NCBI GenBank assembly: GCA_963741205.1
Contig: CAVUHW010000041.1
Location: 1 to 19,677 of the forward strand
DNA length: 19,677 nucleotides
Direction: 5' to 3'
From: Nitrospirota bacterium
GTDB lineage: Bacteria > Nitrospirota > UBA9217
Shown here one piece after another: positions 1-17,309 of this stretch. The position numbers and the translations under genes are program-made. Below the pieces are notes generated by a model that ran no database searches, was not told the origin of the DNA, and was given only the letters and a program-made list of their open reading frames with translations. Every line of letters begins with the position of its first letter. Position 1 is the first letter of the stretch.

Positions 1-179
1 CGGGGTATTGATAGCTATGAGGTTATGTTTTCAACTCAAAAACGCTGACAGCTAATCTCGGAGGTGCCATGCCGGATTCCATCATATTAAGTAGTACAAC
101 TGGAAATTGATAGGATTTGTTGCCAACCAAATTCACACCTTGGTGCTGCTGATACTGGACGAGAAAAAGAGTTTGATCT

Positions 180-410
180 ATTCTGATCGAAATATTTAGC
201 GGTAACATCATCCTGAAGGTGTGAAATTCCAAATCCTCTCAAAATGTTCACTTCATGTCGAATTTGTTAATCTGCCAATGACAAGTCTCCCGCGTACCAG
301 CATCGATGTTTTGCACAGACTGCAGTTCGGTATATTTAGTATTGCACGTCTCTCTGGATGACACTCAAGGAATGTCAAACCTAGTTTCTCAGGATATCGA
401 ATTCATAAAA
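180..410 (+). repeat. CATCCTG-box intergenic repeat copy 1 (core 180-272, with extended right arm)
   Basis: CATCCTG at 209; TTCATGTCGAATTTGTTAAT at 252 (offset 43); right arm (cagcatcgatgttt...tattgcacgtctctct...tcataaa) aligns with copies 3 and 6. Confidence 0.85.
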
Positions 411-602
411 CAAAAACGTACACAGTAATTGCCTTTATCGAAATATGGGTAAATATACCTATATGTACACGAGTAAACTTATCCTATAATATCCTTATGG
501 CCTTTACTACCAACGTTGCGTCAGAGATAATAAGCTGAGAACATCTCGCAGGACGTTATGCGTGTGAATCATATCATTAATTGGTCTAGAGGGAAGATGC
601 CC

Positions 603-996
603 ATGAACTCCTATAACATCATGCTGGCTGACGATCATGTCCCTGTGCGCCAGGGCTTGCGACGGATCATCGAGGCAGTTTCCGAACCTCAAGGTCGTGG
701 GTGAAGTCGGAGACGGTTTGAAACTCCTTGAACTCATGAACGTAATTTTTCCCGATATGACCTTGGTCGACATTTCGATGCCGAACCTGGGTGGCCTCGA
801 AACCGTCAAGGAGATCAAAACTCGGCATCCCAAAGTCAAGGTGCTGATGCTCACTATGTACCGTGACAAGGAATATCCTCAAGCGCTTTCCTCGGCGCGG
901 ACGGATATATTTGAAAGACGACGCCGATACCGAGTATTTGCCGCAATAACCATGATCAGGAGAGGGATAAGGTACGTATCTCCTTACTTCTACTAA
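603..996 (+). CDS. NarL/FixJ-type response regulator receiver domain, no HTH; frameshifted
   Basis: ATG603 gives MNSYNIMLADDHVPVRQGLRRII, then shifts frame to LKVVGEVGDG...PDMTLVDISMPNLGGLE...KVLMLTM, and ends RGIRYVSPYFY. Confidence 0.8.
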
Positions 997-1009
997 AGCC
1001 AGAAGTACT

Positions 1010-1077
1010 TTCTAAAGCAAGCGGCGGCCGACTATTTGGCCGACAAAATCGCAAGCCAACTTAGCCGCGCGTTACAG
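1010..1077 (+). other. degenerate integron attC-like site
   Basis: tctaaa-gcaagcggc...cttagccgcgc-gttacag just after the stop codon; R''/L''/L'/R' layout with a mutated AAC. Confidence 0.4.
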
Positions 1078-1158
1078 CCCATATTTCAATGCTATGACGA
1101 GCGAGCGAGGTGCGTTTTGTAAGTGTCGCTGATGCTGGCAGAAAAAGAAGTCTGGATT

Positions 1159-1295
1159 ATTCTGGTTGAAGTGTTCAACCAAAACGTCATCCTAAAGGTA
1201 GCAGCCGTTTAGATTGATCGAAATTATATGTTTCCTGACGAATTTGTTAATCCCACAACAATAAATCTCACGTTTACTGGCATCAACATTAGCAC
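1159..1295 (+). repeat. CATCCTG-box repeat copy 2
   Basis: CATCCTA at 1188; TTCCTGACGAATTTGTTAAT at 1232 (offset 44); cacaacaataaatctcacg is shared with copies 3 and 6. Confidence 0.85.
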
Positions 1296-1840
1296 CTGAC
1301 GCAGGCCGTCAAGTTTTGCTTGTAACATTTAAGATCCCTCGGCTCCTTTCGGGGGAGTTTCACTCCTTATCCACATCTCCAGCCGCTCGAGATCATTCCT
1401 ATTGTGATATATTAATATAATGGATCAAGTGCTTATCGTGTACAAGTTTTTAAGGCATTTTAATCATATGTCAGCATGCATACAGGTCAAGACCTTGAGA
1501 CGAAGATATTCTTGATCTCGTAAACCATAGGCTCGATGCTGAATGACCCTGATTTTGTTATTCAGGCCCAACTCCAGGGTCTACCTCGAACTGGAGGTCT
1601 TCTTCGGCCTGAAACCGGGGAAGAGATACAAATCGGACAGAGTCCATCTTTTTCGAATGGCTGATTTTTGCCATTTTATCAGCCAGCTTTAAAACGATAA
1701 TATTCGCTACCAGAGCATGTTTTGTTACGCACAAGCGCGATTTTTACGTACACGATAAGCACTTGACCCATATTAGTTTTATTATCCTGTTTTAATCGAT
1801 TCGGCGCCATCATTATTCAATACCGAGAGGAGGACGCACC

Positions 1841-2780
1841 ATGAAAATGAATCTTCAATCACTGTTGTTCCTTTGGGGATCGTGCTTCTTGGGGGCCTCG
1901 CGGCCTGTTCGAGCAGCGAAACGGTTAATCCTTCGGATGTCATACCGCTGCCCGACGGGTTCCAGCCGGAGGGCATCACCATTTCCGGCACAAAGCTCTA
2001 TACCGGGTCGCTCCGACCGGCAAGATCTACATGGTTGATCATCGCAACACGACAGGGAAAGTTCCTTGTGGATGCCGGAGCGGCGGGAAGAATCGCAAGA
2101 GGCATGAAGGTGGACAGCCGGGGCCGTCTTTTCGTTGCAGGCGCGCAGACAGGCAACGCCTACGTCTACGATTCGGAAACAGGAGATAACATCGCCCTGT
2201 ACACCCTTGCAACGGGAACCACGTATATCAACGACGTGATCATTACGGCCAGTGCAGCTGGTTTACCGACTCCACCAACCCGTTTCTTTACAAGATACCC
2301 ATAAACCCGGATGGCTCACTGGGGCGCCGGGGTCGGTTTCAAGCCTCGCGCTGTCCGGCGATATTCATTTCGGTCCGGGGTTTAATTCCAACGGCATCGC
2401 CGCCACCCCGGACGGAGCACTGCTCATCATCGTCCAGACCAATACGGGCAAGCTCTTTACCGTGAATCCCGGTCACCGGTGTTACAACGGAGATATTCTA
2501 GCACGGCGGATAAAGCGGACAACGTGCTGAACGGAGACGGGATCCTTCTTCAGGGACAGACGCTCTTCGTTGTCCAGAACCGGCTGAACGTCATCGCAAA
2601 GATCACGCTCTCGGCGGACTTTGCCACCGGGCGGTAAACGGGCGGGTATCGAGTCCTGGCTTCGACGTCCCGACTTCGGTTACGGCCTCGGACGGGAGCC
2701 TCTATGCCGTGAACGCACGTTTCGGCGTAGCCAATCCCGATACCGCGGCGTATTCGGTCATCCGGATCGACAAACCGTAG
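1841..2780 (+). CDS. SMP-30/gluconolactonase (SGL) family beta-propeller lipoprotein; several frameshifts
   Basis: RBS gagaggagg; lipobox LAAC; motifs LPDGFQPEGITI, GMKVDSRGRLFVAG, YINDV, FNSNGIAATPDG, GDGILL, C-terminal YAVNARFG...IRIDKP-stop, spread across frames. Confidence 0.75.
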
Positions 2781-2861
2781 CAATTGCGTGAAGTTTGTTT
2801 GCTGACTGTCGTTTTCGTTATGATCATCTCTAACAGGTGCCGGCCGTCTGAAAAGTAATCA

Positions 2862-3108
2862 TTTTTCAGAGAAACATTCGCCGCTTGATACATCCTGTAG
2901 TTCACGCCTGTCGCTTATCGCAAGTCTGCGTACTTCCCGTCGAATTTACTAATTCCACAACGATAAATCTCACGTTGACCGGCATTGATGTTTGCTGTGG
3001 ACCTGAATGCTGTGTTTATTATTGCACGTCTCTCTCAATTACTCTTGAGAGAAAAGTGATATCCAATTTTCCCGGATTTTGGTATCATAAACTCCTGGCC
3101 TGCACAAG
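2862..3108 (+). repeat. CATCCTG-box repeat copy 3 with ~150-bp extended right arm
   Basis: CATCCTG at 2891; TTCCCGTCGAATTT at 2934 (offset 43); right arm closely matches 6302-6476 through ttttggtatcataaact. Confidence 0.9.
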
Positions 3109-3195
3109 TTTTATAGCTGAATCTGTAAAAGAATAGATAGAAACAACGTCTCCTAAAATTCCCTAAAATTCCTTTATCGGAGGGGCTCCACTAAG

Positions 3196-3741
3196 ATGAG
3201 AATCATCGCAATCATTGTTATTGTAACAATTATTGCACTTTCCGGATGCGGTGGTGATAGCAACTCTAGCAACGTTGTTCAATCCGGTAATACCAATACA
3301 ACGCTAACGTTATGTTCGAACAACACAACAATTGCGGAAGCTATTGCAACAATCAACGAAGCCCGCAGCGTAAGTCGTACGTGCGGCACAACCAACTATC
3401 CGGCAACAACACCTCTGACGTGGAATTCAAAATTGGCAATGGCAGCAGATGGTCATTCAGCTGATATGGCAACGAATAATTTCTTGTCACATACAGGATC
3501 TAACGGCAGCACCCTTGCAGATCGATTAACCGCTGCTGGCTACCCGTATCGTTCTGCTGGAGAAAATATTGCCGGGGGCTACGGCACAATAGATGCTGTT
3601 ATTACCGGGTGGCTGAACAGTGCAGGACATTGTGCAAACATTATGAGTCCGGATTTCAAAGAATACGCTGTTTCATGCTCCGATAATGAAAATTCTCAAT
3701 ACAAAACATATTGGACTCAAACCTTCGGATCACAAAATTGA
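3196..3741 (+). CDS. CAP/SCP (YkwD-like) domain lipoprotein
   Basis: Lipobox LSGC; motifs INEARS..RTCG, PLTWNSKL, HSADMA, SHTGSNGS, GENIAGG, WLNSAGHCANIM, YWTQTFG. Confidence 0.93.
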   Translation: MRIIAIIVIVTIIALSGCGGDSNSSNVVQSGNTNTTLTLCSNNTTIAEAIATINEARSVSRTCGTTNYPATTPLTWNSKLAMAADGHSADMATNNFLSHTGSNGSTLADRLTAAGYPYRSAGENIAGGYGTIDAVITGWLNSAGHCANIMSPDFKEYAVSCSDNENSQYKTYWTQTFGSQN

Positions 3742-3825
3742 ACACCGTCTGACCTTTTGTTAAAAAGGGCGTACACTTTCCAAGCCGTATTCTGCATTGA
3801 TATTTAATCAATGCCAAATACACGC

Positions 3826-3867
3826 TTTACACCTAAAGTTTTATGGTGTATCTTCAATGTAGATGCA
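3826..3867 (+). promoter_or_regulatory. mazE promoter with overlapping palindromic operator
   Basis: TTTACA(3826)-17-TATCTT(3849); palindrome TGTATCTTCAATGTAGATGCA resembles the mazEF operator. Confidence 0.65.
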
Positions 3868-3883
3868 TGAAAGGCTGCTATTT

Positions 3884-4126
3884 GTGAGAACTCGTGTTCA
3901 AAAATGGGGGAATAGTCTGGCTTTGCGAGTTCCGAAATCTTTTGCAGCCGAAGTCGGACTGCAGAGCGATGCGTCTGTTGATGTTTCTCTGTCTGATGGG
4001 AAATTGATTGTAGTGCCCATTGGAAAACCGGGTATTACCTTGAAGAAACTGTTATCACAAATAACAGACAAGAACATTCATCGTGAAATAGGAAGCGGTC
4101 CAGCCTTCGGTAAAGAAATATGGTAA
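3884..4126 (+). CDS. mazE: AbrB/MazE/SpoVT family antitoxin
   Basis: GTG start; MRTRVQKWGNSLALRVPK...LKKLLSQIT..N.H.EI..GPAFGKEIW. Confidence 0.88.
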   Translation: MRTRVQKWGNSLALRVPKSFAAEVGLQSDASVDVSLSDGKLIVVPIGKPGITLKKLLSQITDKNIHREIGSGPAFGKEIW

Positions 4127-4161
4127 ACACAAAACCATGTGAGAAACCCCAGGGTATCTAG
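4120..4161 (+). pseudogene. stub of a mazF-type toxin (start only)
   Basis: ATG overlaps the antitoxin end (ATGGTAA); MVNTKP, then a stop after 13 codons. Confidence 0.45.
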
Positions 4162-4367
4162 AAACCTTAACACCATGCCTCAGGAATTCAGGGCAGTGGT
4201 GACATACCTGTGTACCCCTTTTTGTGCCCCCTGTTGACCATCAAGGATTATCGATGACACGTATTCGGAGCATCCTTGACTAAAGAGAGAGGGCTTTCAA
4301 TCATCATCTGTTCGTTAAGGCTTTGAATCGGTTGCCAAAGATTACGGAAGCGGAGATATGTATTCAT

Positions 4368-4494
4368 CTTCCCAAAAAGCGACTTTAGGTGACCTCAACC
4401 AAAAATGCAGCGTAGGCGCTGCTACTCGCCGTTAATTTTCGCCGTCAAAGGGACATAAGGTCTTCCCTTTGCAACGATTTATCTTTTCGGGAAG
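4368..4494. repeat. 127-bp palindromic, MITE-like element
   Basis: Terminal IR cttcccaaaaag / cttttcgggaag (11/12); internal hairpins gcagcg-tagg-cgctgc and aaaggga...tcccttt. Confidence 0.5.
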
Positions 4495-4516
4495 TCATGC
4501 CAGACCCGAACGATAA

Positions 4517-4602
4517 TTTTCAACTGAAACCTTCAGCGTGACGACATCCTGAACTAACATCAGCATCAGTTCTCAGAAACGAGAAATTCATGTGGTAGTT
4601 GT
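4517..4602 (+). repeat. CATCCTG-box repeat copy 4
   Basis: gaaaccttcagcgtgacga-CATCCTG(4545); TTCATGTGG at 4587 (offset 42). Confidence 0.75.
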
Positions 4603-4842
4603 TGCCGTTGCTTTTGATGAAAACATCCACGCGTCTTCCTGAACTGTTGTTATTACTATTCTTTGAAACTCAAATCAGCGATAAAAGGAAAATCGAGAAG
4701 GATCTATTCAATAAACGAAGCGGAACAGCGGTGATGTCTCATTTTTTAATCGCCACGATGTCGTCATCGCTGACGCCTTTTCTGTGGACAACGAATTCTA
4801 TGCTGAAGTTTCACGGGTATGCTTGTAAATGCCCGACTGCAT

Positions 4843-4997
4843 TATCACAGGAATGCCACCTGATACAGGGGCATGACCCACCCCCGATTAGCATGGACTC
4901 TTTAAAGACCCTTGCGTGGTCGAGTCGCCTGAAAAAGCTCTTGGACCTGGGATGGAAAGATATTCTTATTCGAGACCGACAGAATCACGCTGCTCAT
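4843..4997 (-). pseudogene. truncated N-terminus of a putative nucleotidyltransferase-fold protein (GSU2403-like)
   Basis: ATG overlaps the upstream stop (ATGA); reconstructed LF.RLDHARVFKESMLIG.WVMPLYQ, then stops. Confidence 0.35.
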
Positions 4998-5330
4998 CCC
5001 TTGCCGGGTTTCAGGATTTTCGATAAATATTCAATTTTTTTCTGATACGCCTGTGCTTCTCTTTCCAACTTTTTTCTTTGCTCCAGCTTTTTCAGTAGTG
5101 CCGGGGCTTCATGGTTGGGGATATGTTTATTGACGACCTTGTTCCCGTCGCGGTATTTCAATGAGTGGTAAGAATAGGCTTTGTCCTTGTAGCGCTTCTT
5201 TCGCTCACTCAATACGCCCTTAGGTAGCCCTTCCAGGGAATTCTGCAGGCCGGCAAGCATATCCTGGTACCGCTTGAATTCGTCACGGAGCATGCTGCTG
5301 ATGATCTTGGTCTTTTTCCACCACTTTCAT
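4994..5330 (-). CDS. hypothetical basic coiled-coil protein; one frameshift near the start
   Basis: MKVVEKDQ.. joins MLRDEFKRY...LPKGVLSERKK..Y.Y.SLKYRDGNKVVNKHI...YLSKIL. Confidence 0.65.
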
Positions 5331-5410
5331 GCTTATATTATGCCTTTTGTGGTGGAAAAGCGCAAGGGGCTTACTCCGGGCGACTAGCTTATTTGATAAA
5401 ATCGTCCTGA

Positions 5411-5443
5411 AATACCCAGCAGCTCTGCTGCGGGGAATTTTAC
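5411..5443. repeat. IS200/IS605-type terminal hairpin remnant
   Basis: aatacccagcagctctgctgcggggaattttac: GC-rich stem cagcag/ctgctg, resembling IS200/IS605 end palindromes. Confidence 0.5.
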
Positions 5444-5470
5444 TACGAATAGCAAACACCCTTGCAACGA

Positions 5471-5560
5471 ATACTGTTCGTAACTTTCGTCGAGCCCTGT
5501 ATCCTCCTAGTTCTCGGCAGATGTAAATCGCGGATTTGCTCACTTCATCTCATATGCTTC
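5471..5560 (+). repeat. CATCCTG-box repeat copy 5
   Basis: gtaactttcgtcgagccctg-TATCCT(5500); aaatcgcggatttgctcac-TTCAT at 5544 (offset 44). Confidence 0.75.
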
Positions 5561-5803
5561 AATTGCGGGATGTAGACGGCATGTACACTTCTTATCAAAT
5601 ATCGTTTGACATGAAAACTTCATAAGCCTAAAATCATTTCGATCATAGCTAGGTATTTTAAGTTCCCCCGTGTTACTTATCAAGCCGGTAGCTTAGGGTG
5701 TTGAAAAATTCCATTGAAAGTTGCATAATAATAGTAATCTCCTAACTCATCGTATCGAGGGGAAGTCGAATTCCATTTATTCCCCCCCCGGAGGCGACAA
5801 CCC

Positions 5804-6030
5804 ATGTCGGTAAAAGCAGTTGAAATGGTGCGAAAGATCCGGGACCAGATTATGAAGAAACGAAGAATCTGTCGGTTGCGGATCAGCTCAAGTACGTGAG
5901 GAAGAAATCCGATAAGCTCGAAAGAGAGCTTGCGAAGTGGAACAAGCGCAAATCTAAGCCCACGGCACCGGCAGCGCGTGTAAGGGGGAAGAAAACTGCT
6001 TCCAAACTCTTGATTGAGGATCGCAACTGA
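5804..6030 (+). CDS. small basic hypothetical protein, possibly antitoxin-like; one frameshift
   Basis: RBS ggagg; MSVKAVEMVRKIRDQ / YEETKNLSVADQLKYVRKKS...TASKLLIEDRN-stop; absent from the ORF track because of the indel. Confidence 0.55.
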
Positions 6031-6229
6031 TCATCTACCCGACCCTACGATCTATCTTCGGTAGATTAAGTTCGTGAAGAAAGCCGAGAAGCTTCATGAA
6101 AAGGTCAAGTCGCGGCGGTCAGTCTCGAGCACCCGCGTTTGCTCGTTCCAGTCTAAGCCTCCCCCGATTTGATACTCCGAAATCACACCTTGTGCTGTCA
6201 ACGCCCGTGATGGCGCCGAAGAACAACTC

Positions 6230-6476
6230 ATTCCATTTGAAACATTCGTCGAGTGCTGCATCCTGTAGGTCGCAAAATCATCCAACGGCAAAATTGCGCA
6301 GTTCCTGTCGAATTTGTTAATCACACAACGATAAATCTCACACTTCCAGCATTGATGTTTGCTGAGAACCTGAATGCTGATGTTTATTATTAAACATCTC
6401 TCTCAATTACTCTCAAGGGAAAAATGTTACCCAATTTCCTCTGATTTTGGTATCATAAACTGCTAGCGTGCACACG
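6230..6476 (+). repeat. CATCCTG-box repeat copy 6 with extended right arm
   Basis: CATCCTG at 6259; TTCCTGTCGAATTTGTTAAT at 6302 (offset 43); right arm matches copy 3. Confidence 0.9.
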
Positions 6477-6524
6477 GATGTCCTTGAGCATCTTAATAAG
6501 GTTACAAGATTAGCAGGACAGTAA

Positions 6525-7100
6525 ATGAATAAACCGGCTATACAATACTATAAAGCCACACCAATTAATTTTGAGGGCATTTTCCGTCTACAGAACAAGA
6601 ACCTAATTACTGCCCTGCAAGGTGGGGATTTATCTCAAGGGTTTCTTACTATACCGATATCAAAGGACCAACTTCATAGAATATGCAGTGAGCATGGTAT
6701 ATTCGTTGCTCTTCAGGGATCAGAAGTTATCGGATACGTGATGGCACAGTCTGTAGAACTTGCAATAGTGTCTCCGTTGATAGCCCACATGTTTGGCAGG
6801 CTGAAGAACGTCGTATTTGAAGGTTCCCAATTATCATCTTGTACATTATTTAATTATGGACCTGTCTGTATTGAGAAGCAATATAGAGGAAAAGGAATTT
6901 TGGATAACCTATTCAATTTGATGCTTCAAACATTGCAAGGACAGTTTGAGGTGGGTATTGGTTTTGTATCAGAACAAAATCCACGTTCTTATTATGCGCA
7001 TAAAAAGAAACTGGGATTGCAATTGATAGATGAATTTGATTTCAGTGGGCAGAAGTATTTTACCTTTGCCTTTGCTGTAACACGGAAAGAGCGGAAGTGA
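6525..7100 (+). CDS. GNAT family N-acetyltransferase
   Basis: Motif A YGPVCIEKQYRGKGIL; VSEQNPRSYYAHKKKLG. Confidence 0.85.
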   Translation: MNKPAIQYYKATPINFEGIFRLQNKNLITALQGGDLSQGFLTIPISKDQLHRICSEHGIFVALQGSEVIGYVMAQSVELAIVSPLIAHMFGRLKNVVFEGSQLSSCTLFNYGPVCIEKQYRGKGILDNLFNLMLQTLQGQFEVGIGFVSEQNPRSYYAHKKKLGLQLIDEFDFSGQKYFTFAFAVTRKERK

Positions 7101-7105
7101 CGTTG

Positions 7106-7172
7106 TCCTAACGACAAAACCCTAGCCGGTTGTTCGATGATCTCGACCGCAGCCTGCACTTCTCGGTTTGGA
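7106..7172 (+). other. degenerate attC-like site after the GNAT gene
   Basis: R'' tcctaac 5 bp after the stop; R' gtttgga (vs gttagga); internal cggt/accg pairing. Confidence 0.45.
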
Positions 7173-7192
7173 TCTGCCCCAGAAAAGATGCC

Positions 7193-7280
7193 ATTTCCGA
7201 TCGTAACGTCGAGCGTGAGGTCATCCTGAAGCCCAAGGCTGCTGTAATATGTAAGACGTGTAGAATTCAAATGGGATTCC
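7193..7280 (+). repeat. CATCCTG-box repeat copy 7
   Basis: gtaacgtcgagcgtgaggt-CATCCTGAAG(7222); TTCAAATGG at 7266 (offset 44). Confidence 0.7.
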
Positions 7281-7357
7281 ACAAATTCCAAAGAGTGAAA
7301 CCCTCGTGACGATCATTTTGAACTTTGCACACGGGTTAATAGTGCCGGGAGTGTAAC

Positions 7358-7449
7358 TTTCATGTCGTATCATTCAGCGCGCAGATCATCCTGTAATTCA
7401 CGCCAAACACAAATCTGGGATCTGCGCACTTCATGCTGAATTTGTTAAC
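7358..7449 (+). repeat. CATCCTG-box repeat copy 8
   Basis: gtatcattcagcgcgcagat-CATCCTG(7387); TTCATGCTGAATTTGTTAAC at 7430 (offset 43). Confidence 0.88.
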
Positions 7450-7493
7450 GCATGGCCCAGAGAGATCCTTCCCCCGTCATTATTTCCCCGTCA

Positions 7494-7522
7494 TTGACAT
7501 CGTCCTGAATCAGGCATATATT
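7494..7522 (+). promoter_or_regulatory. sigma70 promoter candidate
   Basis: TTGACA-17-TATATT. Confidence 0.55.
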
Positions 7523-7580
7523 CATGCAGTAGGAGGCTCATTCGTAGTTATTTTTGAGAGTGAATAAGATAAGTAGCGAA

Positions 7581-7639
7581 TAATAACGTGCTGCTCCGAA
7601 GCGTCGCTCCGAAAGGCGGCGCGTGACCGGCGTTTATGA
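7581..7639 (+). other. degenerate attC-like site
   Basis: taataac...gcgtcgct-ccgaa-aggcggcgc...gtttatga. Confidence 0.35.
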
Positions 7640-7734
7640 TTGGAAAATTATCAAAATGAACTCTGAAATCGAAAAAAAACAATAACGGATGTCGCCAGCG
7701 AGATGAACACATCCATCATACGCTATAGGAGGAA

Positions 7735-8355
7735 TTGCTCATGAGTTACATACAGATGATCAGAATGAGGCGACTGTTCTTGTCACTTATGGGAAAGCTG
7801 CTTCTAATTGGACTACTGATAGGATTGTGCAGTTGCCAGAGCATGCGGCGGATTACTAATCCTCCACCGGCACTTCCGGAGCCAAAATATGTTGCATCCG
7901 TTAATGATGACGTGAAATTTACGGTCATCCCTTTCAATTATTATATGAACCAGATAGAATTCGCAGCAGACGTAGAAAGCGTTCTACTCAAAGCGGGTCT
8001 GAATCTCGTTGCGGCCCCTCGAGTCACAAAAATGGTGGAAGAAAGGAAAGGCGCTGGAGTAGCACATGACAGTGATGCTTCAAGCGTATCAAATGCGCGA
8101 GTTCAGAGCGAGGAGATTCAAGCGACAAGCGTGGAAAAATATATTACCAACGGGGAAATCAATACGGATTACATAGTAGAAACAATGTTGATCCGTTATA
8201 AAGGTACTGTTAAGTTCACGAGAAAAAAAGACGCTAAAATTATGGGGGTCTTCACAGTTTCGGCTGACGACTCAGATCACCTTAGAAAGGAAATTTTTGA
8301 TGCACTTGAGGACATGCATTTTATAGTTCGTACCCAAAATGACGATAATCCGTGA
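7735..8355 (+). CDS. hypothetical lipoprotein (start uncertain)
   Basis: 206-aa ORF; RBS aggagg; hydrophobic signal ending LCSC. Confidence 0.7.
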   Translation: MLMSYIQMIRMRRLFLSLMGKLLLIGLLIGLCSCQSMRRITNPPPALPEPKYVASVNDDVKFTVIPFNYYMNQIEFAADVESVLLKAGLNLVAAPRVTKMVEERKGAGVAHDSDASSVSNARVQSEEIQATSVEKYITNGEINTDYIVETMLIRYKGTVKFTRKKDAKIMGVFTVSADDSDHLRKEIFDALEDMHFIVRTQNDDNP

Positions 8356-8436
8356 TATGTAATAGAAGCTGTGTCAAACAAGAGCGAAGAAGCTTGTAGG
8401 CTGCAGCAAGGACACTTTTCTTTAGGGACCATTTTT

Positions 8437-9687
8437 TCACATCATCTCCACGGACAGCGGTACGACTGCTACACCCTGGAGTCCCAGACCGGTAAAACCC
8501 CTGACGTATAAGTTCACCGGGATGAACTCATCCAACGTGGGGAAGATCCCGTTGGGGATAACGTTGAACTGGATGCTCGTGAATTCGCCCAGACCGAACC
8601 CATTCATATTGCGCATCACGATATGCAGTAGGGCCGGTACCCCGAAGAACGCGGGTGTGTATTTGGCTGCTATGATATTGTTGTTACCAAAGTCGGCTAC
8701 GCCCGATATGGTAACGACCCCGTCCGCGGTGATTCCTGTGGTCCGATCATGATCGAGCGTGACACCCAGTGGCAGGGCGAGCGTCACATCTAAGGCCGAC
8801 AGGGCGAAGGGAATACCAACCGTTGCCAACTTGAGCACGCCGGTTGCGAATGCGGGAGGCGCGGTGGCTGTCGTTCCGGTCGCGGCTGTCGTTCCGGCCG
8901 CGGTTGTCGTTCCGGTCGTGGTTGTATTGTTGGTGAAGCTTGCAATAGCCCCGCTGATCATGTTGGTCGAATCCGTCGACAGGTCGCCGCCGTGTTCCTC
9001 CTCATCGTCGAACTTGCCGAGAATCCGTTCCAAGGCGTCGTCCAGCGGTTCATTTTCCAACTTGTTTAAGTTAATGAGCAGCGAAAAGGCTCCGCAGGCT
9101 GCAGCGTACTTCTTCTGGTCGTCCGTCTCCCCTCCTGCAACAGGCAGGACCGAGACGATGTTCCTGAGACTAAAGGAGACAGCGACGCTGGCATTTGAAT
9201 TGTCAATCGATTCCGAGGTGAGAGGTCCGCTGCCTTTCGCTTTTTTATAGGCCAGTTCGGTCAGCGGCGTCACGGACACCGTCGTTGTTGCGTTGAGCTT
9301 AACGCCGGTAACGACCGCATGCAGCGGGATCTTGAGAGCGACCGTTGCCCCGCTTGCTTCGTCCGTAAATATTCCGCCTGTAACCTCAACGAATACTGGC
9401 CCTTCATAGGAGCCGAGGCTTACAGAATAGCTCCCTCCGTCAACGGTCTCTCCTGTCCCTATCGGAGCGGACGTGTCTATAAGGCCATCCTTTATCCCGT
9501 ACACTTTTACCGCCGCTCCGCTGATCGGCCCCTTTGACACCATCCCGCTCAGAACGCTTGCCTGCGCAGGTGGGGGAGCCGTCGATGTCGTTGCTTCTCC
9601 TCCAGACTTTCCGTTGCTGCCACAGCCCGTCAACAAAAGTACCACGAAATAGAGAATGGCAATTGGCTTGACGTATCGTATTTTCAT
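8437..9687 (-). CDS. secreted lipoprotein with an N-terminal Ig/carboxypeptidase-regulatory-like domain and a Thr/Ala linker
   Basis: MKIRYVK...LLLTGC lipobox; SGMVSKGPISGAAVKVY, GGIFTDEASG, VSVTPLTELA; the ORF is open from 9777. Confidence 0.75.
   Translation of the reverse strand: MKIRYVKPIAILYFVVLLLTGCGSNGKSGGEATTSTAPPPAQASVLSGMVSKGPISGAAVKVYGIKDGLIDTSAPIGTGETVDGGSYSVSLGSYEGPVFVEVTGGIFTDEASGATVALKIPLHAVVTGVKLNATTTVSVTPLTELAYKKAKGSGPLTSESIDNSNASVAVSFSLRNIVSVLPVAGGETDDQKKYAAACGAFSLLINLNKLENEPLDDALERILGKFDDEEEHGGDLSTDSTNMISGAIASFTNNTTTTGTTTAAGTTAATGTTATAPPAFATGVLKLATVGIPFALSALDVTLALPLGVTLDHDRTTGITADGVVTISGVADFGNNNIIAAKYTPAFFGVPALLHIVMRNMNGFGLGEFTSIQFNVIPNGIFPTLDEFIPVNLYVRGFTGLGLQGVAVVPLSVEMM
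8863..8925. repeat. 18-bp in-frame tandem repeat, 3.5 units
   Basis: (c/g)g(c/t)gg(c/t)tgtcgttccgg(t/c), encoding the TTTGTTTAAGTTAATGTTAT linker. Confidence 0.85.
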
Positions 9688-10236
9688 GGAACTGTACATT
9701 TCACTTCGGTCATGTAGAAAAGAGGAAGGTGCAGGTGACGCCTGCACCGGTAGCAGGAATGGGATGTTCTTCTTCATGGGATGCCTCCCTGCACTACTTG
9801 TAGGGAAAACTTGATTCTAATAAAATGATAGCACGGGCCGCAGATAACGCACTGTTTTAGAATATGGTATAATATTTGTCCTGTTTTAATGTTCGCTTGT
9901 GGCAGCAGCTGAATCAGGAGAACTTTTGCTGTTCTCATGCGAAGGGAGAAGTCTGCTTGGTAGATTTAGTCGGGAAGGCGATGACGTCCTTCAGAGGGGT
10001 TGGATCCCGCCGGAATGGTGGGTCGGATTGGACCGGAATACACATCATAGGTGCTATCGTTTTCGGTATCATTAACTAAAGAAGTTTAAACACAGACCCG
10101 CTGTAGACTGCACTTGGAGGTCATCTTCTGATTTTATTGTTGGCATGTTCCGACCAGGAATTCGTAGTTTTTCAAACGAGCGCAGACGCGAGGTAGTAGG
10201 TGTTGCCGATATATATGATCAATCGTAAAAATAACA

Positions 10237-10326
10237 AATCCGTTTGTAAACTTCAGTGCGGCGATAATCCTGTGGTTCACGCTAAACATAAATCGCGGAT
10301 CCGCGCACTTCATGTCAAAATTGTTG
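10237..10326 (+). repeat. CATCCTG-box repeat copy 9
   Basis: gtaaacttcagtgcggcgat-AATCCTG(10266); TTCATGTCAAAATTGTT at 10309 (offset 43); very similar to copy 8. Confidence 0.88.
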
Positions 10327-10604
10327 TTTTCTGAAGTTGCCTTCCTTAAAATCAAGGGAATGTTTAGCTCGCTCGTTGCCTCAACCTTTCCTTGCTCGAC
10401 GAATGTTCAGAAAACGAACAAGAGCACGGAGAATGGCACATATCAAGGATCTGCTGTCAACGCTAAAGTGAAAACTCACGGAATACGGCTTATAATAAGC
10501 GATCGGCCCAAAATGAGTTGCTCAGAATAACCCCACCCGCCCAAAAAAATCCGCACATACCTGCAAACATATTGTTTTCACTCAATCATTATCATCTTAA
10601 TTTG

Positions 10605-10621
10605 TTGGCATATCATTTGCT
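10605..10621 (+). promoter_or_regulatory. sigma54 (-24/-12) promoter
   Basis: TTGGCATATCATTTGCT with exact GG-N10-GC spacing. Confidence 0.6.
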
Positions 10622-10728
10622 TAAAAAAGCTCATAATGACTACAAAAAAAATTGTAGATGCACTCTTAATCGATGCAATGACATCCTGAAAGTCGCTCAG
10701 ACAAAGTGTCACACGAGGCGGTTGAGTA

Positions 10729-11043
10729 ATGTCTAAAGATACTATTTTAGACGTACAGTGTCCGGCGTGCCATTCGACGGCCGTCAATCGTTATGGATAT
10801 ACACGAAAAAGCATACAGCGCTATGTCTGCTTAATCTGTGGGAGGCAGTTTACTAATGGTTACCGTAAGATAGTCGAGCAAAGACCGTTATGCGTTTCCT
10901 GCGGCGGCATTATGTATCTCTACAAAGAGGAGAAGACGAGCGTACGTTACAGGTGCTCGAGATATCCTGACTGCAGAACATTCGTGAAAGTTTCAAAAAA
11001 GGGAACCAGTATCGAGGCATCATCAGCTCCAGCTCCAGCATAA
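10729..11043 (+). CDS. double zinc-ribbon protein with an IS1 InsA-like N-terminus
   Basis: CPACHS..VNRYG.....QRYVCLICGRQF plus CVSCGG...YRCSRYPDC; no InsB/DDE domain follows. Confidence 0.7.
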   Translation: MSKDTILDVQCPACHSTAVNRYGYTRKSIQRYVCLICGRQFTNGYRKIVEQRPLCVSCGGIMYLYKEEKTSVRYRCSRYPDCRTFVKVSKKGTSIEASSAPAPA

Positions 11044-11156
11044 CTTCGGTCACATTATCTCCAAGTAATACTCAATATTCCGTTTGAACAAAAATTGAAG
11101 AAGCCTAATATCTTGCCATACCTTTTCTTGGAACAGAATCAAAATGTCAAAATCCC

Positions 11157-11185
11157 TTGACTAAAATTCTCTACTCTGACATACT
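11157..11185 (+). promoter_or_regulatory. sigma70 promoter of hup
   Basis: TTGACT-17-CATACT, with TG one base upstream of the -10 box. Confidence 0.55.
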
Positions 11186-11238
11186 TTCGTTCGCCCCTCT
11201 ATTAAAGCACATTCAACCCAATCCAAAAGGAGGATCAA

Positions 11239-11526
11239 ATGGCAAAAGCGATGACCAAGGCGCAATTGGTAACACGTGTTTCTGAGAAAGCCGGAATCAC
11301 GAAGAAGGCAGCGAGTGACATACTTATTCACATTGCTGAAATAGCCTACAAGGAAGCAAAGAACTCATTTACACTTCCTGGCATTGGGAAGCTCGTGCTC
11401 GTTCAGCGCAAGGCCCGCATGGGCAGGAACCCCCAGACCGGCGAGGCCATCAATATTCCCGCTAAGAAGGTTGTCAAGTTCCGAGTTGCCAAGGCCGCAA
11501 AGGATGCGATCTTGGGGAAGAAATAA
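11239..11526 (+). CDS. hup: DNA-binding protein HU
   Basis: RBS aggagg; MTKAQLV...LPGIGKL...RKARMGRNPQTGEAINIPAKKVVKFR. Confidence 0.95.
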   Translation: MAKAMTKAQLVTRVSEKAGITKKAASDILIHIAEIAYKEAKNSFTLPGIGKLVLVQRKARMGRNPQTGEAINIPAKKVVKFRVAKAAKDAILGKK

Positions 11527-11554
11527 CAGCTATCACCTGAGAGCAATCATCGGT

Positions 11555-11591
11555 AAAAGGGCCTTCTGACCTCTGGTTGGAAGGCTCTTTT
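11555..11591 (+). terminator. rho-independent terminator (bidirectional form)
   Basis: aaaagggccttctgacc-tct-ggttggaaggctctttt. Confidence 0.75.
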
Positions 11592-11609
11592 GGGTTTGAG
11601 AGAACCATA

Positions 11610-11722
11610 TTTGCGATCGTAATATTCAGCGCGTTTAGCTTCCTGAACTCATTGAAGTAGCATATCATTAAAACATATCAAGTTACATTCTGTATCTGTT
11701 GGGATGCCCCAAAAATACCCAA
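11610..11722 (+). repeat. CATCCTG-box repeat copy 10
   Basis: gtaatattcagcgcgtttag-CTTCCTGAAC(11639); right arm ttaca...atgccccaaaaatacccaa is shared with copy 11. Confidence 0.7.
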
Positions 11723-12040
11723 TCAACGTGATTGACAGGAAATAACATCGACATTGCCTGGCTATACTCGCAAAAACAGATAACGATCCTTTCAACAACC
11801 TGCGAAGAAGCATCCGGAGGTTTCAGGACTGATCGAGGCGTTCAATAATTAAATTAATCCCACCTTTGCTTGTGTTTCTTAAATTTTTATGATATACATA
11901 AAAAGTAACGTTATCTCTACTCTCCATTACAAAAGCGCATAATCGTATTATTCTTTGATATCAAAATACTAACAACACCAAAAATCCGAGCAGTATAGCC
12001 CCGATTCTGTGTGGATTTCGGCAGAGAAAGGAGATTATAC

Positions 12041-12478
12041 ATGTTAAAAGAGTTCAAGGAATTCATCATGCGGGGCAATGTAGTGGATCTCGCAGTCGGT
12101 ATCATCATCGGCGGGGCTTTTGGAAAGATCATCACCTCCCTGGTCGGTGACGTCCTGATGCCGCCGTTGGGAAAGCTCATGGGCAATATGGACTTTAGCG
12201 GGCTGTTCATCAACCTCTCGGGAACCGCGTATCCATCGCTTGCGGCGGCCAAGGCAGCAGGGGCAGCCACGATCAACTACGGGTTGTTCATCAACACGGT
12301 GATCGACTTCATCATCGTCGGGGCAGCAATATTTATCCTGATCAAACAGGTCAATCGTTTGAAAAAACCAGTAGAGGTTGCGCCTCCGTCCACCAAGGCA
12401 TGTCCGTATTGCCTGTCCAATGTGCCGCTCAAGGCGACCCGTTGTTTTGCTTGCACTTCGGAACTAAAGGCAATGTGA
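12041..12478 (+). CDS. mscL: large-conductance mechanosensitive channel with a C-terminal CxxC-CxxC tail
   Basis: [35 protein letters not shown]...[13 protein letters not shown]; tail CPYC...CFAC. Confidence 0.95.
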
Positions 12479-12570
12479 AATATAGCACTCATTGATTCGG
12501 CAGCGAGATGGCGGATTCGATTGTCCCCACAAACCATAATTTAACTCTAATTAAAGAAAGGAATCGAGCC

Positions 12571-13419
12571 ATGAAATGTAAAAAATCTTTTCAGATTACG
12601 CTTGCACTTTCGTCTTTGCTGATAGCTGCGGTCGCTGCGTCTCCCGCGCAAGCGAAGCCACACCTCGGATATGTCTACAACACGGACGAAACAGCTCCCG
12701 TGCGCACCATGGACGGAAATTGCGTTCGCACAATGGAGTGGCGGAAAGAGTTAGCCAACATGGAATGCAATCCCGAGTTGGTACCGGCGCCGAAGGTCGT
12801 CGCGCCGGCACCGGCCCCTGCTCCCGCGCCAGCGGCGGAATCAACCCCCGCACCTGCGGCAGCAGCAACCGCAGCTGCAGCTGCGGCTGTTGTTCCTGAA
12901 AAAGACAGCGATAACGATGGCGTACCCGATAGTAAGGATAAATGTCCCGACACGCCAGCCGGTGTAAAGGTGGATGCGAACGGATGCCCCCTTGACAGCG
13001 ACAATGACGGCGTACCGGATTATCTGGACAAGTGTCCGGACACGCCCGCTGGCGCAACGGTTAACGCGGACGGCTGCGTGATTAAGATCACCCTTAACGT
13101 GCAATTTGATTCGGGCAAGGCGGAGGTTAAATCGCAGTATCTGCCTGAGCTCGAACAGTTCGCTCAGGCCTTGAAGCAGAAACCTGAAGTGAAGGTAGAG
13201 ATCGAGGGCCATACGGACAACGTGGGCAACGCAGCGAAGAACAAGTCGCTTTCCGAAGCCCGGGCAAAGGCAGTTCGCGACGTGCTGGTCAAGAAATACG
13301 GCATTGCCGCCGACCGTGTTACGGCAAAAGGATACGGTATGGAAAAGCCGGTGGCCGGGAATGACACGCCCGAAGGCAGGGAAAAGAACCGGCGCGTAGA
13401 CGCGGTCAGAGTGAAGTAG
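12571..13419 (+). CDS. OmpA/OprF-family peptidoglycan-binding protein with a Pro/Ala linker and two TSP3-like Ca-binding repeats
   Basis: Signal peptide; DSDNDGVPD..DKCPDTPAG twice; FDSGKA, IEGHTDNVG, LSEARAKAV, GYG..KP, NRRV. Confidence 0.92.
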   Translation: MKCKKSFQITLALSSLLIAAVAASPAQAKPHLGYVYNTDETAPVRTMDGNCVRTMEWRKELANMECNPELVPAPKVVAPAPAPAPAPAAESTPAPAAAATAAAAAAVVPEKDSDNDGVPDSKDKCPDTPAGVKVDANGCPLDSDNDGVPDYLDKCPDTPAGATVNADGCVIKITLNVQFDSGKAEVKSQYLPELEQFAQALKQKPEVKVEIEGHTDNVGNAAKNKSLSEARAKAVRDVLVKKYGIAADRVTAKGYGMEKPVAGNDTPEGREKNRRVDAVRVK

Positions 13420-13471
13420 ATATACGTTATTAACATTCTGGGAATTTTAAAAGGATGAGACTTGAAGACAA

Positions 13472-13536
13472 GCCCAACAAGGCGCTAAGAGGGGCGCGGC
13501 ATGAAGCCGCCGCGCCCCCCAGCTTGGTCGTTCATG
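13472..13536 (+). other. integron attC site (isolated)
   Basis: R'' GCCCAAC; L'' aaggcgctaag; GC stem ggggcgcggc/gccgcgcccc; L' cagcttggtc; R' GTTcatg; 65 bp. Confidence 0.7.
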
Positions 13537-13718
13537 TGTATGATACAACCAGAATACTGCATGCCCGTTGATAGATCGTCTACTCGCTCTGTAGTGAATG
13601 TCGCAATCTTCATGTCGGCAAATGACATGTACCAGCCGAAATTGTTAACAGTATCGCCTTTTCGATTTCACAAGTAGTAGGTGACGCTGATAAATATTAT
13701 GATGCTGAAGGTTAATAA

Positions 13719-13753
13719 ATTCCAGTCGAAACTTTCATCGCGCCCTCCATCCT
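13719..13753 (+). repeat. CATCCTG-box repeat copy 11, left half (interrupted by the IS)
   Basis: attccagtcgaaactttcatcgcgccctc-CATCCT, then non-repeat sequence. Confidence 0.85.
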
Positions 13754-14009
13754 TTTATGTTAAAAGTCAAGCCTGGCTCAGACTAAACAGGCTGGCCGAT
13801 AGGTTTTTCCCTGTTTGCTGTTTGTTTTCGTTAATGGTCATTGAAAGAGTATCAGTCGGAGGATTCCTCCCCTGCATTGATCGTTTGTGAGAAATTTCTT
13901 TGTTGGAGCAAATATCGGTTCTCACAAATGCCCCAGGATCGATTTTCCCGGGACAGTCCATATCCTGATACCCCCCTGTAGGATCCTTTCTCGGGATTTG
14001 TTCGCAGAA

Positions 14010-14216
14010 CGGACAAATCTTTAAAACCACGCTTTTATTAGCAGACATGCCTACATCATTAAAGGCAGCTGCATTTCCTTGATCATGTATTAAAGTTGTG
14101 GGTCCGCAGTCTGAAGTAGTGCAGACACGCTTCATTAGCCGGCTGCAGGATGGAACAAAGCGGTACCCACGATGAATAAGGTTCTAAAATCGGCCGCTCT
14201 AACGTGATCCCGTTTC
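14010..14216 (-). ncRNA. predicted bridge/seek RNA with target-binding and donor-binding loops (ends approximate)
   Basis: Two homologous stem-internal-loop-stem units (GCAGC..UAAUGA..UGUCUGC); guides UCCAUCCU and ACUUCAG match the target; AUAAAAG matches the donor. Confidence 0.8.
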
Positions 14217-15287
14217 TTATTGTATAACCGCAGGCACATACTCCTTCTGATTCTTCAGGACGTATCTGATTCGATTCAATAGTTTTCTGGCGATATGAAC
14301 GATGGCCCTTGTTCTTGGCATGTTCTTAGAGAGGCGTTCAAAGGCCATTAGCAACGCCGGGTCTTTCCGTGTAGCAATCCACGAGCTTTCAATAATCAAA
14401 TGCCGAAGTGATTGGTTGCGCCGGTTGGTAATGCCTGTTGTGATGTCCTTTTCTCCGCTGGAGTCCGTATTAGGAATGAGACCGACATAGCTCGCAAGTT
14501 TGTCGAGTGATCCAAACCGATCAATATTACACAGTTCCGTGAGAAACGTCATGGCGGTGAGTGTGCTGATCCCCGATACGGTTCTTAACAATTTCACATT
14601 AACTTTATATTCAGCTGACCGAGAGAGGACGCGAATGTTCCGGTTCAATTCGACAACGATTCCCCGGATATGGTGTAGCTCTTGGAGATGCACCATAAAG
14701 GAGACATTGCCACTGGCTTTTTCCATGCGAATCGCTTCAAGCCATTTAATGAACTTGCTTGACCAGTTACGAGTAACAATGTCAGTGGGTAGATGAATGC
14801 CATAAAAAGCGAGCATGGACTTGATCTGGTTCTTGCACCGGGTCTGCTTCTTGACCATGTTTCGTCGAGTTCTGATTAAGCTGCGATCTTCGACCTTTAT
14901 CCGCGTGGGAACATAGATTCCTGCGAGCTCTCCGTTCCTATGGCATCGGGCAAGTTTGCGGCAATCTACCTTATCGTTTTTGCCTGCCCGTTCCTTGTCT
15001 GTTGTCGGAATGTCAGCAGGATTTACCACTATGCAGTCGATGCCTTTTTCTCTTAACTGGTCGTGGATCCAGAATCCGGAATAGCCGGCTTCATAAACGG
15101 CATGATAGGTTGCACCAGGGAAGTTCCGATTCAAGTAGTTGGCAAGAACCGATGGATCTGGTGGTTGCGTGAAGGTCTTATGTTCAAACTGCTGAGTCAA
15201 GATGCATACACTCCAACTTTTCTTATGAACGTCCAAACCGACATAAATATGTTGACCGCTGAAATCGAGTTTGCTAATGTTAATCAT
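14217..15287 (-). CDS. IS110 family transposase/recombinase (DEDD RuvC plus Tnp20 domain)
   Basis: VGLDVHKK, VYEAG, KNDKVD catalytic DEDD residues; GLIPNTDSSG serine motif; RBS aaggag. Confidence 0.95.
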   Translation of the reverse strand: MINISKLDFSGQHIYVGLDVHKKSWSVCILTQQFEHKTFTQPPDPSVLANYLNRNFPGATYHAVYEAGYSGFWIHDQLREKGIDCIVVNPADIPTTDKERAGKNDKVDCRKLARCHRNGELAGIYVPTRIKVEDRSLIRTRRNMVKKQTRCKNQIKSMLAFYGIHLPTDIVTRNWSSKFIKWLEAIRMEKASGNVSFMVHLQELHHIRGIVVELNRNIRVLSRSAEYKVNVKLLRTVSGISTLTAMTFLTELCNIDRFGSLDKLASYVGLIPNTDSSGEKDITTGITNRRNQSLRHLIIESSWIATRKDPALLMAFERLSKNMPRTRAIVHIARKLLNRIRYVLKNQKEYVPAVIQ

Positions 15288-15367
15288 GGCAAGTCTCCTT
15301 TCGGTGTATTTTGGTCTTCCTAACGAAAATATACCTTAAGTCAGACTTGCCATTTTAATCATAAGGT

Positions 15368-15447
15368 CTGAAGTTCACGAATTCCCATTCTTGCAAACAA
15401 TCAACGTTACGTTTCGAATTTATTACCGTATGCCCCCAAAATACCCA
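15368..15447 (+). repeat. CATCCTG-box repeat copy 11, right half
   Basis: CTgaagttcacg...ttacgtttcgaatttt...atgcccccaaaatacccaa. Confidence 0.8.
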
Positions 15448-15450
15448 ACC

Positions 15451-15501
15451 GAAGTCGTGTTACAACAACTTCTTGACAATGACATGAGTATGGATTAAGT
15501 T
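15451..15501 (+). promoter_or_regulatory. promoter with an adjacent 22-bp palindromic operator candidate
   Basis: gaagtcgtgttacaacaacttc abuts TTGACA(15473)-17-TAAGTT. Confidence 0.5.
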
Positions 15502-15795: not shown

Positions 15796-15944
15796 ATCAT
15801 CCCCCGACAATTTCCCCCGTTCATTAAGTAGCGCGCTCGCAGAGAGGTCCGAAGCTGCCTTGGCTCCCTGTTGGTGCACTTTATCGCCTTGTGCCTATGC
15901 CAGAGGCACGATGCATCACGTCCACATTCTTTTCACGAGGAATC

Positions 15945-17299: not shown

Positions 17300-17309
17300 G
17301 AGGAGTGAA

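Follow-up and report, generated by a model that had tools for sequence, protein, structure and literature searches.

What kind of sequence stands, always pointing the same way, between the mutually unrelated genes of a contig from a Nitrospirota bacterium, and how did those genes come to lie between its copies? The contig (C41; CAVUHW010000041.1 of assembly GCA_963741205.1), all 19,677 nucleotides of which were analysed and are referred to here as the window, belongs to a 50-contig, 4.27-Mb metagenome bin (G000) that is 84% complete and 4.9% contaminated. A first-pass annotation had listed 11 core boxes here, all on the plus strand, and had proposed that they mark a recombination site by which gene modules accrete. 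We found that the boxes belong to an asymmetric, non-coding site of ~100 bp that recurs through the genome, and that similarity between the flanks of different copies stops at one central heptamer, CATCCTG. The reading we favour, to which we give about an even chance, is an undescribed, non-integron gene-cassette system with duplex recombination sites, a central crossover core and an unlinked recombinase.

All 11 core boxes were confirmed by sequence at the positions listed for them. For counting the family we built an nhmmer profile from the window copies and took E <= 0.01 as significant; ten of the 11 copies were significant by this measure (matches at 173, 1149, 2840, 4510, 5443, 6215, 7356, 10229, 11601 and 13703), an extra twelfth piece was found at 15331, and the seventh copy (7180/7222) was weak (14 bits, E > 0.01). 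We also built a covariance model, R1, from the sites, which was used with stricter filters on this genome and on 40 relatives. The sites of the window are as follows.

177 to 277, plus strand: site 1, core CATCCTG at 209-215; nhmmer 70 bits, R1 79 bits
1156 to 1257, plus strand: site 2, core variant CATCCTA at 1188-1194; nhmmer 53 bits, R1 69 bits
2859 to 2959, plus strand: site 3, core at 2891-2897; nhmmer 71 bits, R1 76 bits
4514 to 4612, plus strand: site 4, core at 4545-4551, right box diverged; nhmmer 48 bits, R1 68 bits
5468 to 5569, plus strand: site 5, core variant TATCCTC at 5500-5506; nhmmer 55 bits, R1 59 bits
6227 to 6327, plus strand: site 6, core at 6259-6265; nhmmer 82 bits, R1 84 bits
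7190 to 7290, plus strand: site 7, core at 7222-7228, left arm and core recognisable, right arm aberrant; nhmmer 14 bits, fits the loose pattern described below
7355 to 7455, plus strand: site 8, core at 7387-7393; nhmmer 77 bits, R1 86 bits
10234 to 10334, plus strand: site 9, core variant AATCCTG at 10266-10272; nhmmer 65 bits, R1 77 bits
11601 to 11705, plus strand: site 10, core variant CTTCCTG at 11639-11645, unusual right arm; nhmmer 19 bits
13703 to 13753, plus strand: left half of site 11, ends CATCCT; nhmmer 30 bits, junction read
15368 to 15427, plus strand: right half of site 11, starts CTGAAG; nhmmer 27 bits at 15331, junction read

Conservation and flank similarity were compared pairwise across 67 sites. 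Conservation spans about -35 to +57 around CATCCTG, with the left flank conserved ~45 nt further within sub-families, and the heptamer is the most conserved stretch of all (exact in 49 of the 67). The left arm carries the boxes TTC-N5-G(A/T)AAC and TTC(A/G)(G/T)CG, and the right arm a variable stretch of ~36 nt followed by (C)TTCATGTCGAATTTGTTAA; the element TTC-N5-G(A/T)A is present in both arms, as direct repeats ~71 bp apart. The reported offset of 42-44 to the second box held for the cores at 209, 1188, 2891, 4545, 5500, 6259, 7387 and 10266, and the scatter of one base either way may be partly error, because the bin is error-rich with single-base indels. A loose pattern, ATCCTG-N35-39-TTC-N7-A, matched seven times in the window, always on the plus strand, against 0.33 expected, and none of 200 shuffled sequences reached seven matches.

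The evidence that carries our reading lies in the flanks of these sites. When the 60 nt on each side of the core were compared, 14 pairs of sites were >=85% identical on the left with <=50% identity on the right, nine pairs showed the reverse, and no pair was alike on both sides. BLAST of the 1.5-kb flanks gave 35 left and 22 right homologies ending <=12 nt from the core (40-1500 nt long, 80-97% identity); none of these 57 crosses the core, and no pair of sites appears in both the left and the right list. In the alignments identity runs to CATCCTG, or begins at it, and collapses beyond. For example, the sites at C9:11246 and C49:8442 are 96% identical over at least 1500 nt on the left with unrelated right flanks, and the same C9 site shares its right flank with C34:83912 (97% identical over 215 nt) with unrelated left flanks. 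Sites of the window behave in the same way: site 3 and C5:14180 have right flanks that are 92% identical over 210 nt (left flanks unrelated), site 8 has its right flank in common with C32:23760 (left flanks different), and the left flank of site 10, including a gene for an HU/IHF-like protein, is 95% identical over 436 nt to that of C9:4809 and stops at the core. These comparisons show that sites have swapped flanks with one another at the core, every junction being a new combination. Because flank identity breaks at CATCCTG, the left arm goes with the module upstream, the right arm and any conserved leader behind it with the module downstream; such unique arm combinations are the signature of repeated exchange at one point.

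A mosaic of this kind in a metagenome bin could in principle come from mis-assembly or from co-assembly of strains, an explanation to which we give hardly any credence. The bin is in 50 contigs, incomplete and slightly contaminated, its arrays frequently reach contig ends and frameshifts are common in it, all of which would suit an artefact. However, an assembler cannot make families of arms that end at the same heptamer, the internal arrays of the long contigs C10 and C14 show the same pattern, and strain mixing would still need recombination at the core. Independent contigs of other sequencing runs also carry other arm combinations: in four soil-metagenome runs from two studies, whose contigs cover parts of the window, we found contigs that join arms differently with the joint at the core (6267 to 10275), contigs with loose ends at 4556, and contigs with differing left arms before the insertion sequence (IS) at 13748. 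These four runs contain just 5-9% of the sampled words, and the arm combinations in them support us weakly, since they come from short contigs of low depth that were placed on the window at >=85% likeness.

Across the genome, the profile scan gave 78 significant matches on 20 of the 50 contigs, with C5 (13), C41 (11), C45 (9), C9 (8) and C10 (7) the richest. Copies scattered genome-wide in both orientations had been named in the first-pass annotation as an outcome that would speak against its proposal; the spread over 20 contigs goes halfway to this, but the matches are clustered and share a single orientation in each of the 14 contigs that have two or more. Adjacent cores are 430-7575 bp apart (46 intervals, median ~2.1 kb), the arrays have a GC content of 47-53% against 52-64% in the remainder of the same contigs, and among non-overlapping open reading frames (ORFs) of >=100 aa within modules 70 of 98 are co-oriented with the sites and 28 are antisense. 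Site orientation also matches the sign of GC skew, taken over 30 kb of flanking sequence, in 14 of the 20 site-bearing contigs and in nine of the ten that have at least three sites; arrays may be polarised relative to replication.

The modules themselves bear out the earlier description of co-oriented arrays dividing unrelated stretches of 0-2 genes. Between the sites of the window lie the following, according to Pfam, NCBIfam and the ORF list.

278 to 13702, plus strand: cargo modules between sites, mutually unrelated
3196-3741: CAP-domain protein
3863-4126: MazE-like antitoxin
6525-7100: 191-aa ORF
7735-8355: 206-aa ORF
8437-9777, minus strand: 446-aa ORF with only a weak RTX N-terminal match
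10729-11043: IS1-type zinc-ribbon protein
11239-11526: HU/IHF-like protein
12011-12478: MscL
12508-13419: OmpA-family protein

Several of the cargo ORFs of the window have no family in Pfam or NCBIfam, and the 446-aa ORF on the minus strand contains three tandem 18-nt units at 8866-8919. Taken together, the cargo looks like typical accessory single genes, such as those for an antitoxin, CAP-domain protein, glyoxalase, DinB-like protein, aldo-keto reductase and SRAP protein. One module of the window, the 165 bp between the cores at 7222 and 7387 (7229-7386), has no cargo and is made up solely of one right and one left arm. The HU/IHF-like gene is found in four copies that are 96-100% identical (window 11239-11526, C9:4925-5209, C6:20410-20694 and C45:9330-9551); a significant site lies 74-78 nt downstream of it in C41 and C9, and only weak matches lie behind the C6 and C45 copies. 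Its product may be an accessory DNA-bending factor carried as a cassette. Elsewhere in the window, genes are frameshifted at 600-1000, 1841-2780 and 15860-19050 (a response regulator, an SMP-30-like protein, a porin-like protein and a metal ABC-transporter operon), and single-base indels relative to contigs of other runs occur at 17324, 18054, 18813, 18854 and 18912; these broken genes have the look of faulty assembly, not of decay.

Some right arms are followed by a further conserved stretch, which we call the leader.

2953 to 3140, plus strand: conserved leader right after the right box of site 3, made of repeat families D1, D4, D7 and D13

A second clear copy of this leader occupies 6324-6474, and diverged copies lie behind sites 1 and 2. 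The leader is ~150-190 nt long and has seven copies in the genome by BLAST, each beginning 62-65 nt past the core wherever the core was among the listed sites; copies outside the window (C5:14242, C45:2630, C45:17522, C15:185900 and C11:49040) are paired with differing stretches between core and right box. It could carry a promoter or a second recombination boundary. A separate 26-nt repeat (85% identical) is found just past the right arms of sites 10 and 11 (11704-11729 and 15430-15455), with a TTGACA hexamer next in both, and is possibly, with the hexamer, a shared promoter region of the downstream module or operon.

Sequences of this kind raise the question of whether the site is a cis-acting expression unit (a 3' end plus a promoter or 5' leader) or a small RNA that is carried along with genes, the mosaic being secondary; we consider this very unlikely. 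It would suit a site that is always intergenic and mostly co-oriented with genes, the leader behind at least seven sites, the promoter-like hexamers after some right arms (7494-7522 and 5606-5634), and the terminator-like sequence ahead of the site behind the HU-like gene, fragments of which, together with the left arm, also occur in C34 and C48. Yet promoter-like matches are not enriched at the sites (26 against 22.4 expected; terminator-like matches, 21 against 15.8), no Rfam match was found in the window at E <= 1 with cmscan, structure and covariation are lacking as described below, and an expression unit leaves unexplained why all flank homologies end at one heptamer.

Related sites were found in relatives of this bacterium. 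R1, which gave 48 matches in this genome, gave one or two in eight of the 40 relatives; six of these eight belong to the same genus, the other two to different genera of the family. In the aligned matches the left boxes and the right box are retained, as is a C(A/T)TCCTG core. Looser scans found small co-oriented arrays of diverged sites in three relatives (G002, G011 and G014). G002, a 100% complete genome with no IntI above cut-off, has at least three co-oriented sites in a stretch of low GC whose accessory genes stand singly (radical SAM, SRAP, PLD-like, glyoxalase and DinB-like). In G007, the operon that stands to the right of the array is present (70-87% identity) but lies behind an unrelated gene with no site, and the counterpart of that gene in our genome is on C8, away from arrays. 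A scan of public genomes with an exact pattern, which catches only four of this genome's own sites, gave 18 single matches in unrelated taxa; 13 of these loci were modelled, the best scoring 18.7 bits (E 0.24), and we discarded them as chance. Among public metagenome contigs 24 loci fitted the pattern, of which three contigs carry the site by model (43, 29 and 27 bits, one site each), and no arrays were recovered from these contigs. In the data searched, the family seems confined to this lineage.

The last site of the window, which had been classed as a degenerate copy, is better explained as a site cut in two by an insertion.

13754 to 15367, minus strand: IS110/IS1111-family element of 1614 bp in the core of site 11, with CT on both sides
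14217-15287, minus strand: its transposase (DEDD; PF01548 57.6 bits, PF02371 61.8 bits)

The element from 13754 to 15367 has what defines an IS110 member, namely a DEDD transposase, sequence-specific insertion and a target-matching non-coding region. The statement that the window contains no cognate recombinase needs amending to this extent, for a transposase gene is present, but it belongs to the inserted IS. The same element recurs at full length in C5 and C9 and in part in C36, each time at the same position, between CATCCT and CTGAAG, and in the same relative orientation. Its 463-nt non-coding part (13754-14216) contains, at 14111-14153, CTGAAGT and, 28 nt on, CAGGATGG; the former is the right half of the target and the latter is the complement of the left half, a pattern chosen post hoc that matches once against 0.01 expected. 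Elements of the IS1111/IS110 group choose their targets by seekRNA or bridge RNA, and some target attC sites or REP (repetitive extragenic palindromic) sequences, as summarised in PMC11187229; judged by its letters, the match in the non-coding region fits such a mode of target choice. A second, distinct IS110-family element (PF01548 127-132 bits), whose transposase is co-oriented with the site, lies at C45:1159-2536 with the same core dinucleotide and at C10 ~87944-89200 in a core-like sequence. The genome has 13 PF01548 matches altogether, seven of them inside arrays.

These elements suggest another origin for the mosaic: the site would be selfish or otherwise employed, and IS110-family copies sitting at the core would recombine homologously and then excise scarlessly, leaving chimeric sites joined at the core. 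At least three full copies and one partial copy of one IS, and two copies of a second, all at a fixed core position and orientation, would speak for it, as would the concentration of PF01548 matches in arrays, the guide-like core match and the precedent of IS1111-family members that target attC and REP sequences. We nevertheless think this unlikely, as it requires two rare steps for all 57 junctions and leaves unexplained both the conserved arm boxes of a ~100-bp site kept at low copy across genera and the strictly co-oriented arrays that delimit modules; small arrays are also present in relatives (no IS search was made there).

We next consider whether the sites are folded or coding sequences. 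The first-pass annotation had described an imperfect inverted pair in each site; the sequence complementarity is there, but covariation is not. RNAalifold predicted no consensus pairs in eight copies, the folding of individual copies as hairpins or attC-like structures was unsupported, and a hand-drawn 16-pair hairpin, although it paired 71% of cells (30-44% when slid), showed a covariation of 0.110 against a shuffled mean of 0.105, a value reached by 155 of 500 shuffles. With DNA parameters, the mean folding z over 47 sites was -0.5 on the top strand and -0.56 on the bottom strand, with z < -2 in six and four of the 47, respectively; as a caution on this measure, three attC-like hairpins beside intI gave only -0.3 to -2.2. 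The arms alone gave -0.13 and -0.42 against -0.62 for a control sequence. ARAGORN found no tRNA or tmRNA gene, and neither the Rfam search nor the covariation analysis lends anything to the non-coding RNA alternative that had been raised. A protein-coding reading on the minus strand ('LQD..E.F..N' by eye) was also rejected, with stops in most copies and no long frame entering the site; column entropy by codon phase (1.15, 1.06 and 1.11 bits) has no three-base periodicity, and frames open toward the core from upstream have medians of 7-13 codons across the three phases. For REP sequences, bacterial interspersed mosaic elements (BIMEs) and miniature inverted-repeat transposable elements (MITEs), the sites lack the expected features, with no palindrome signal, one orientation in all 14 multi-match contigs and clustering. 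The earlier view that the sites do not behave as attC, REP, CRISPR or a known RNA was in this way supported.

The integron deserves a fuller comparison, since the genome encodes an integrase of its own. The only integron integrase above the curated cut-off is a 315-aa protein at C18:131988-132923 (TIGR02249 ~367 bits, cut-off 265), and directly upstream of its gene (region C18:131988-135900) are about three low-GC small-gene cassettes with classical GC-rich attC-like hairpins, one of which folds end to end (-14.3 kcal/mol, z -2.2). Even with filters off, R1 matched nothing in the 19 kb around intI and nothing on the contigs that carry intI in G007 and G018. Since the integrase has conventional cassettes of its own, where R1 is silent, the 78 sites are a different family.

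The competing proposal is that our sites are divergent attC sites, their arrays being CALINs (attC sites clustered without an integron-integrase) serviced in trans by the C18 integrase, which we regard as distinctly unlikely. Besides the presence of IntI, it could draw on the outer boxes, the left of which ends G(A/T)AAC and the right of which reads GTTAA(T) some 85 nt away, with just 3-4 bp pairable; on co-oriented cassette-like cargo of low GC with IS1111/IS110-type insertions; and on the two strongest matches in relatives (G007 and G018) being in IntI genomes. CALINs are common, half of them in IntI-encoding replicons, as reported in PMC4889954. But the crossover expected of an attC site, at its 3' end between G and TT, was not found: all 57 flank homologies stop in mid-site, at the heptamer, instead of at the right box's GTT. 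There is likewise no consensus fold (z about -0.5) or covariation, the integrase has separate classical hairpins that R1 does not match, and G002 has its co-oriented sites with no IntI above cut-off. An IntI-like match (E <= 1e-60) is present in three of eight relatives with a site match and in eight of 32 without, so no association can be claimed.

A candidate for the recombinase was sought through PF00589, PF00239 and PF01548 across the genome and through the genes at array ends. Tyrosine recombinases are represented by a Xer-type gene on C34, by a split gene on C45, by IntI on C18, by fragments and by a XerA-like one in C10. The last, a 279-aa ORF on the minus strand at C10:102252-103091 (NF040815 115 bits, below cut-off), is the only tyrosine recombinase within an array region; it is divergent to the sites and has no clear site beside it. 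At the head of the array on C32 (194-2148) a serine recombinase gene overlaps a TnpB-like gene in an IS607-like unit, followed by another IS110-family transposase; C8 and C20 carry comparable serine recombinase genes, away from any site. The genes beside four array heads of this genome and around the array of G002 are ordinary metabolic or accessory genes.

How the favoured system might work can be outlined from these observations. A site-specific recombinase would act on pairs of sites, with the heptamer as its putative strand-exchange (overlap) region and the arm boxes as putative protein-binding sites. Exchange between two direct sites would release a circular module with one complete site, and this circle could enter any other site, which would build co-oriented arrays of unrelated modules. 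The recombinase would act in trans or sit in the unassembled ~15% of the genome, and IS110-family elements with a putative core-matching guide region use the same point as their insertion target.

Several observations weigh against this scheme. The proposal of a recombination site that accretes modules is upheld by the break of all 57 flank homologies at the heptamer, but not by the search at array ends (C10, C14, C9, C49, C32 and G002; Pfam and NCBIfam over 29 ORFs), where no shared recombinase was found, nor by the modules, none of which is repeated whole, core to core, in two contexts. The site varies most just left of its core, which is unusual in a recombinase site of the simple core type. 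Similarity among leaders is 73-84% where it is 43-65% in the stretch from core to right box, which points to a possible second switch of similarity near the right box that a model with one core does not explain; conservation of the right box in every copy prevents this switch from being located. The break point is indistinguishable from the IS110 insertion point, as IS-mediated exchange would have it. Finally, the bin is fragmented and error-rich, and the sites we treat as paralogous may include alleles of co-assembled strains.

If the cassette reading is right, its consequences go beyond this lineage. Integrons are the textbook case of site-specific gene capture, with the single-stranded attC hairpin held to be their defining trick; cassette accretion would then have evolved more than once, in a form missed by current integron finders, and would point to a new pair of recombinase and site of possible use as a tool. 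More tentatively, and with somewhat less than even confidence, we suggest a second, independent invention of the integron idea, with chromosomal cassettes, an unlinked recombinase, a genus-wide distribution and its own guild of RNA-guided IS110 parasites. The site in addition offers at least two IS110/IS1111 elements, putatively RNA-guided, a natural family of targets in many copies, good for studying how a guide tracks a host repeat.

We compared the system with those it resembles, and as these families are defined it lies outside each of them; it works like integrons and CALINs in genome organisation, but fails the attC tests that could be run. The literature on integron-like or novel cassette arrays, IS1111-attC elements, dRS3 and neisserial mosaic elements, and dif modules or tycheposons gave us no description of such sites; supplements, which lay outside the search, might list repeats of this lineage. 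The likeness to integrons and CALINs consists in co-oriented arrays of unrelated, mostly single-gene and mostly co-oriented accessory modules, separated by ~100-bp sites that are homogeneous within a genome and divergent between species, in arrays that lie away from an integrase, and in sites that are targets of IS1111/IS110 elements. In contrast, the present sites have no hairpin signal and an inferred crossover in mid-site, so that each arm is tied to a different neighbour, and every module has a right arm as its conserved 5' part, whereas in integrons, according to PMC4889954, the attC site stays with the upstream gene except for its last bases. The modules here are also larger (median ~2.1 kb) with 28 of 98 ORFs antisense, and IntI has a separate classical array. 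In a complete integron, moreover, intI with its extra domain adjoins the array, and this genome's intI has no site in the 19 kb around it.

The dif modules of Acinetobacter plasmids likewise consist of genes between short recombination sites, and in both systems an unlinked recombinase of housekeeping type presumably does the shuffling. Their pdif sites are 28 bp long, with XerC and XerD arms around a 6-bp centre, and alternate in orientation, whereas ours are ~100 bp long, all direct and chromosomal. Dedicated IS families target pdif sites, as described in PMC13141974 and PMC10132070. In the neisserial dRS3/RS arrays, or neisserial intergenic mosaic elements (NIMEs), a short conserved repeat also separates segments that reassort, and PMC1797815 describes the dRS3 repeat as a proposed target of a site-specific recombinase that is used for integration by a phage-encoded transposase or recombinase, an enzyme of IS110 type. 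The NIME units of that account, however, are 50-150-bp non-coding segments between 20-bp inverted repeats, and the units here bear genes, measure 0.4-7.6 kb and are divided by a long, asymmetric site.

Tandem accretion at att sites, as in cis-mobilisable elements and tycheposon satellites, produces direct repeats of an att core that divide integrase-less cargo modules, and each repeat there copies the 3' end of a gene for a tRNA or protein. The internal junctions of our arrays are attP-like in the same sense (arm, core, arm), but there is no tRNA here, no gene reads into the site and the modules are far smaller than typical islands. Lastly, the IS in the window resembles the IS1111-attC and REP-targeting elements in its DEDD transposase, its fixed position and orientation in a repeated target, its target-matching non-coding region and the shared CT. 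This last comparison concerns a parasite of the site and not the site itself, and the target that the parasite has taken is new.

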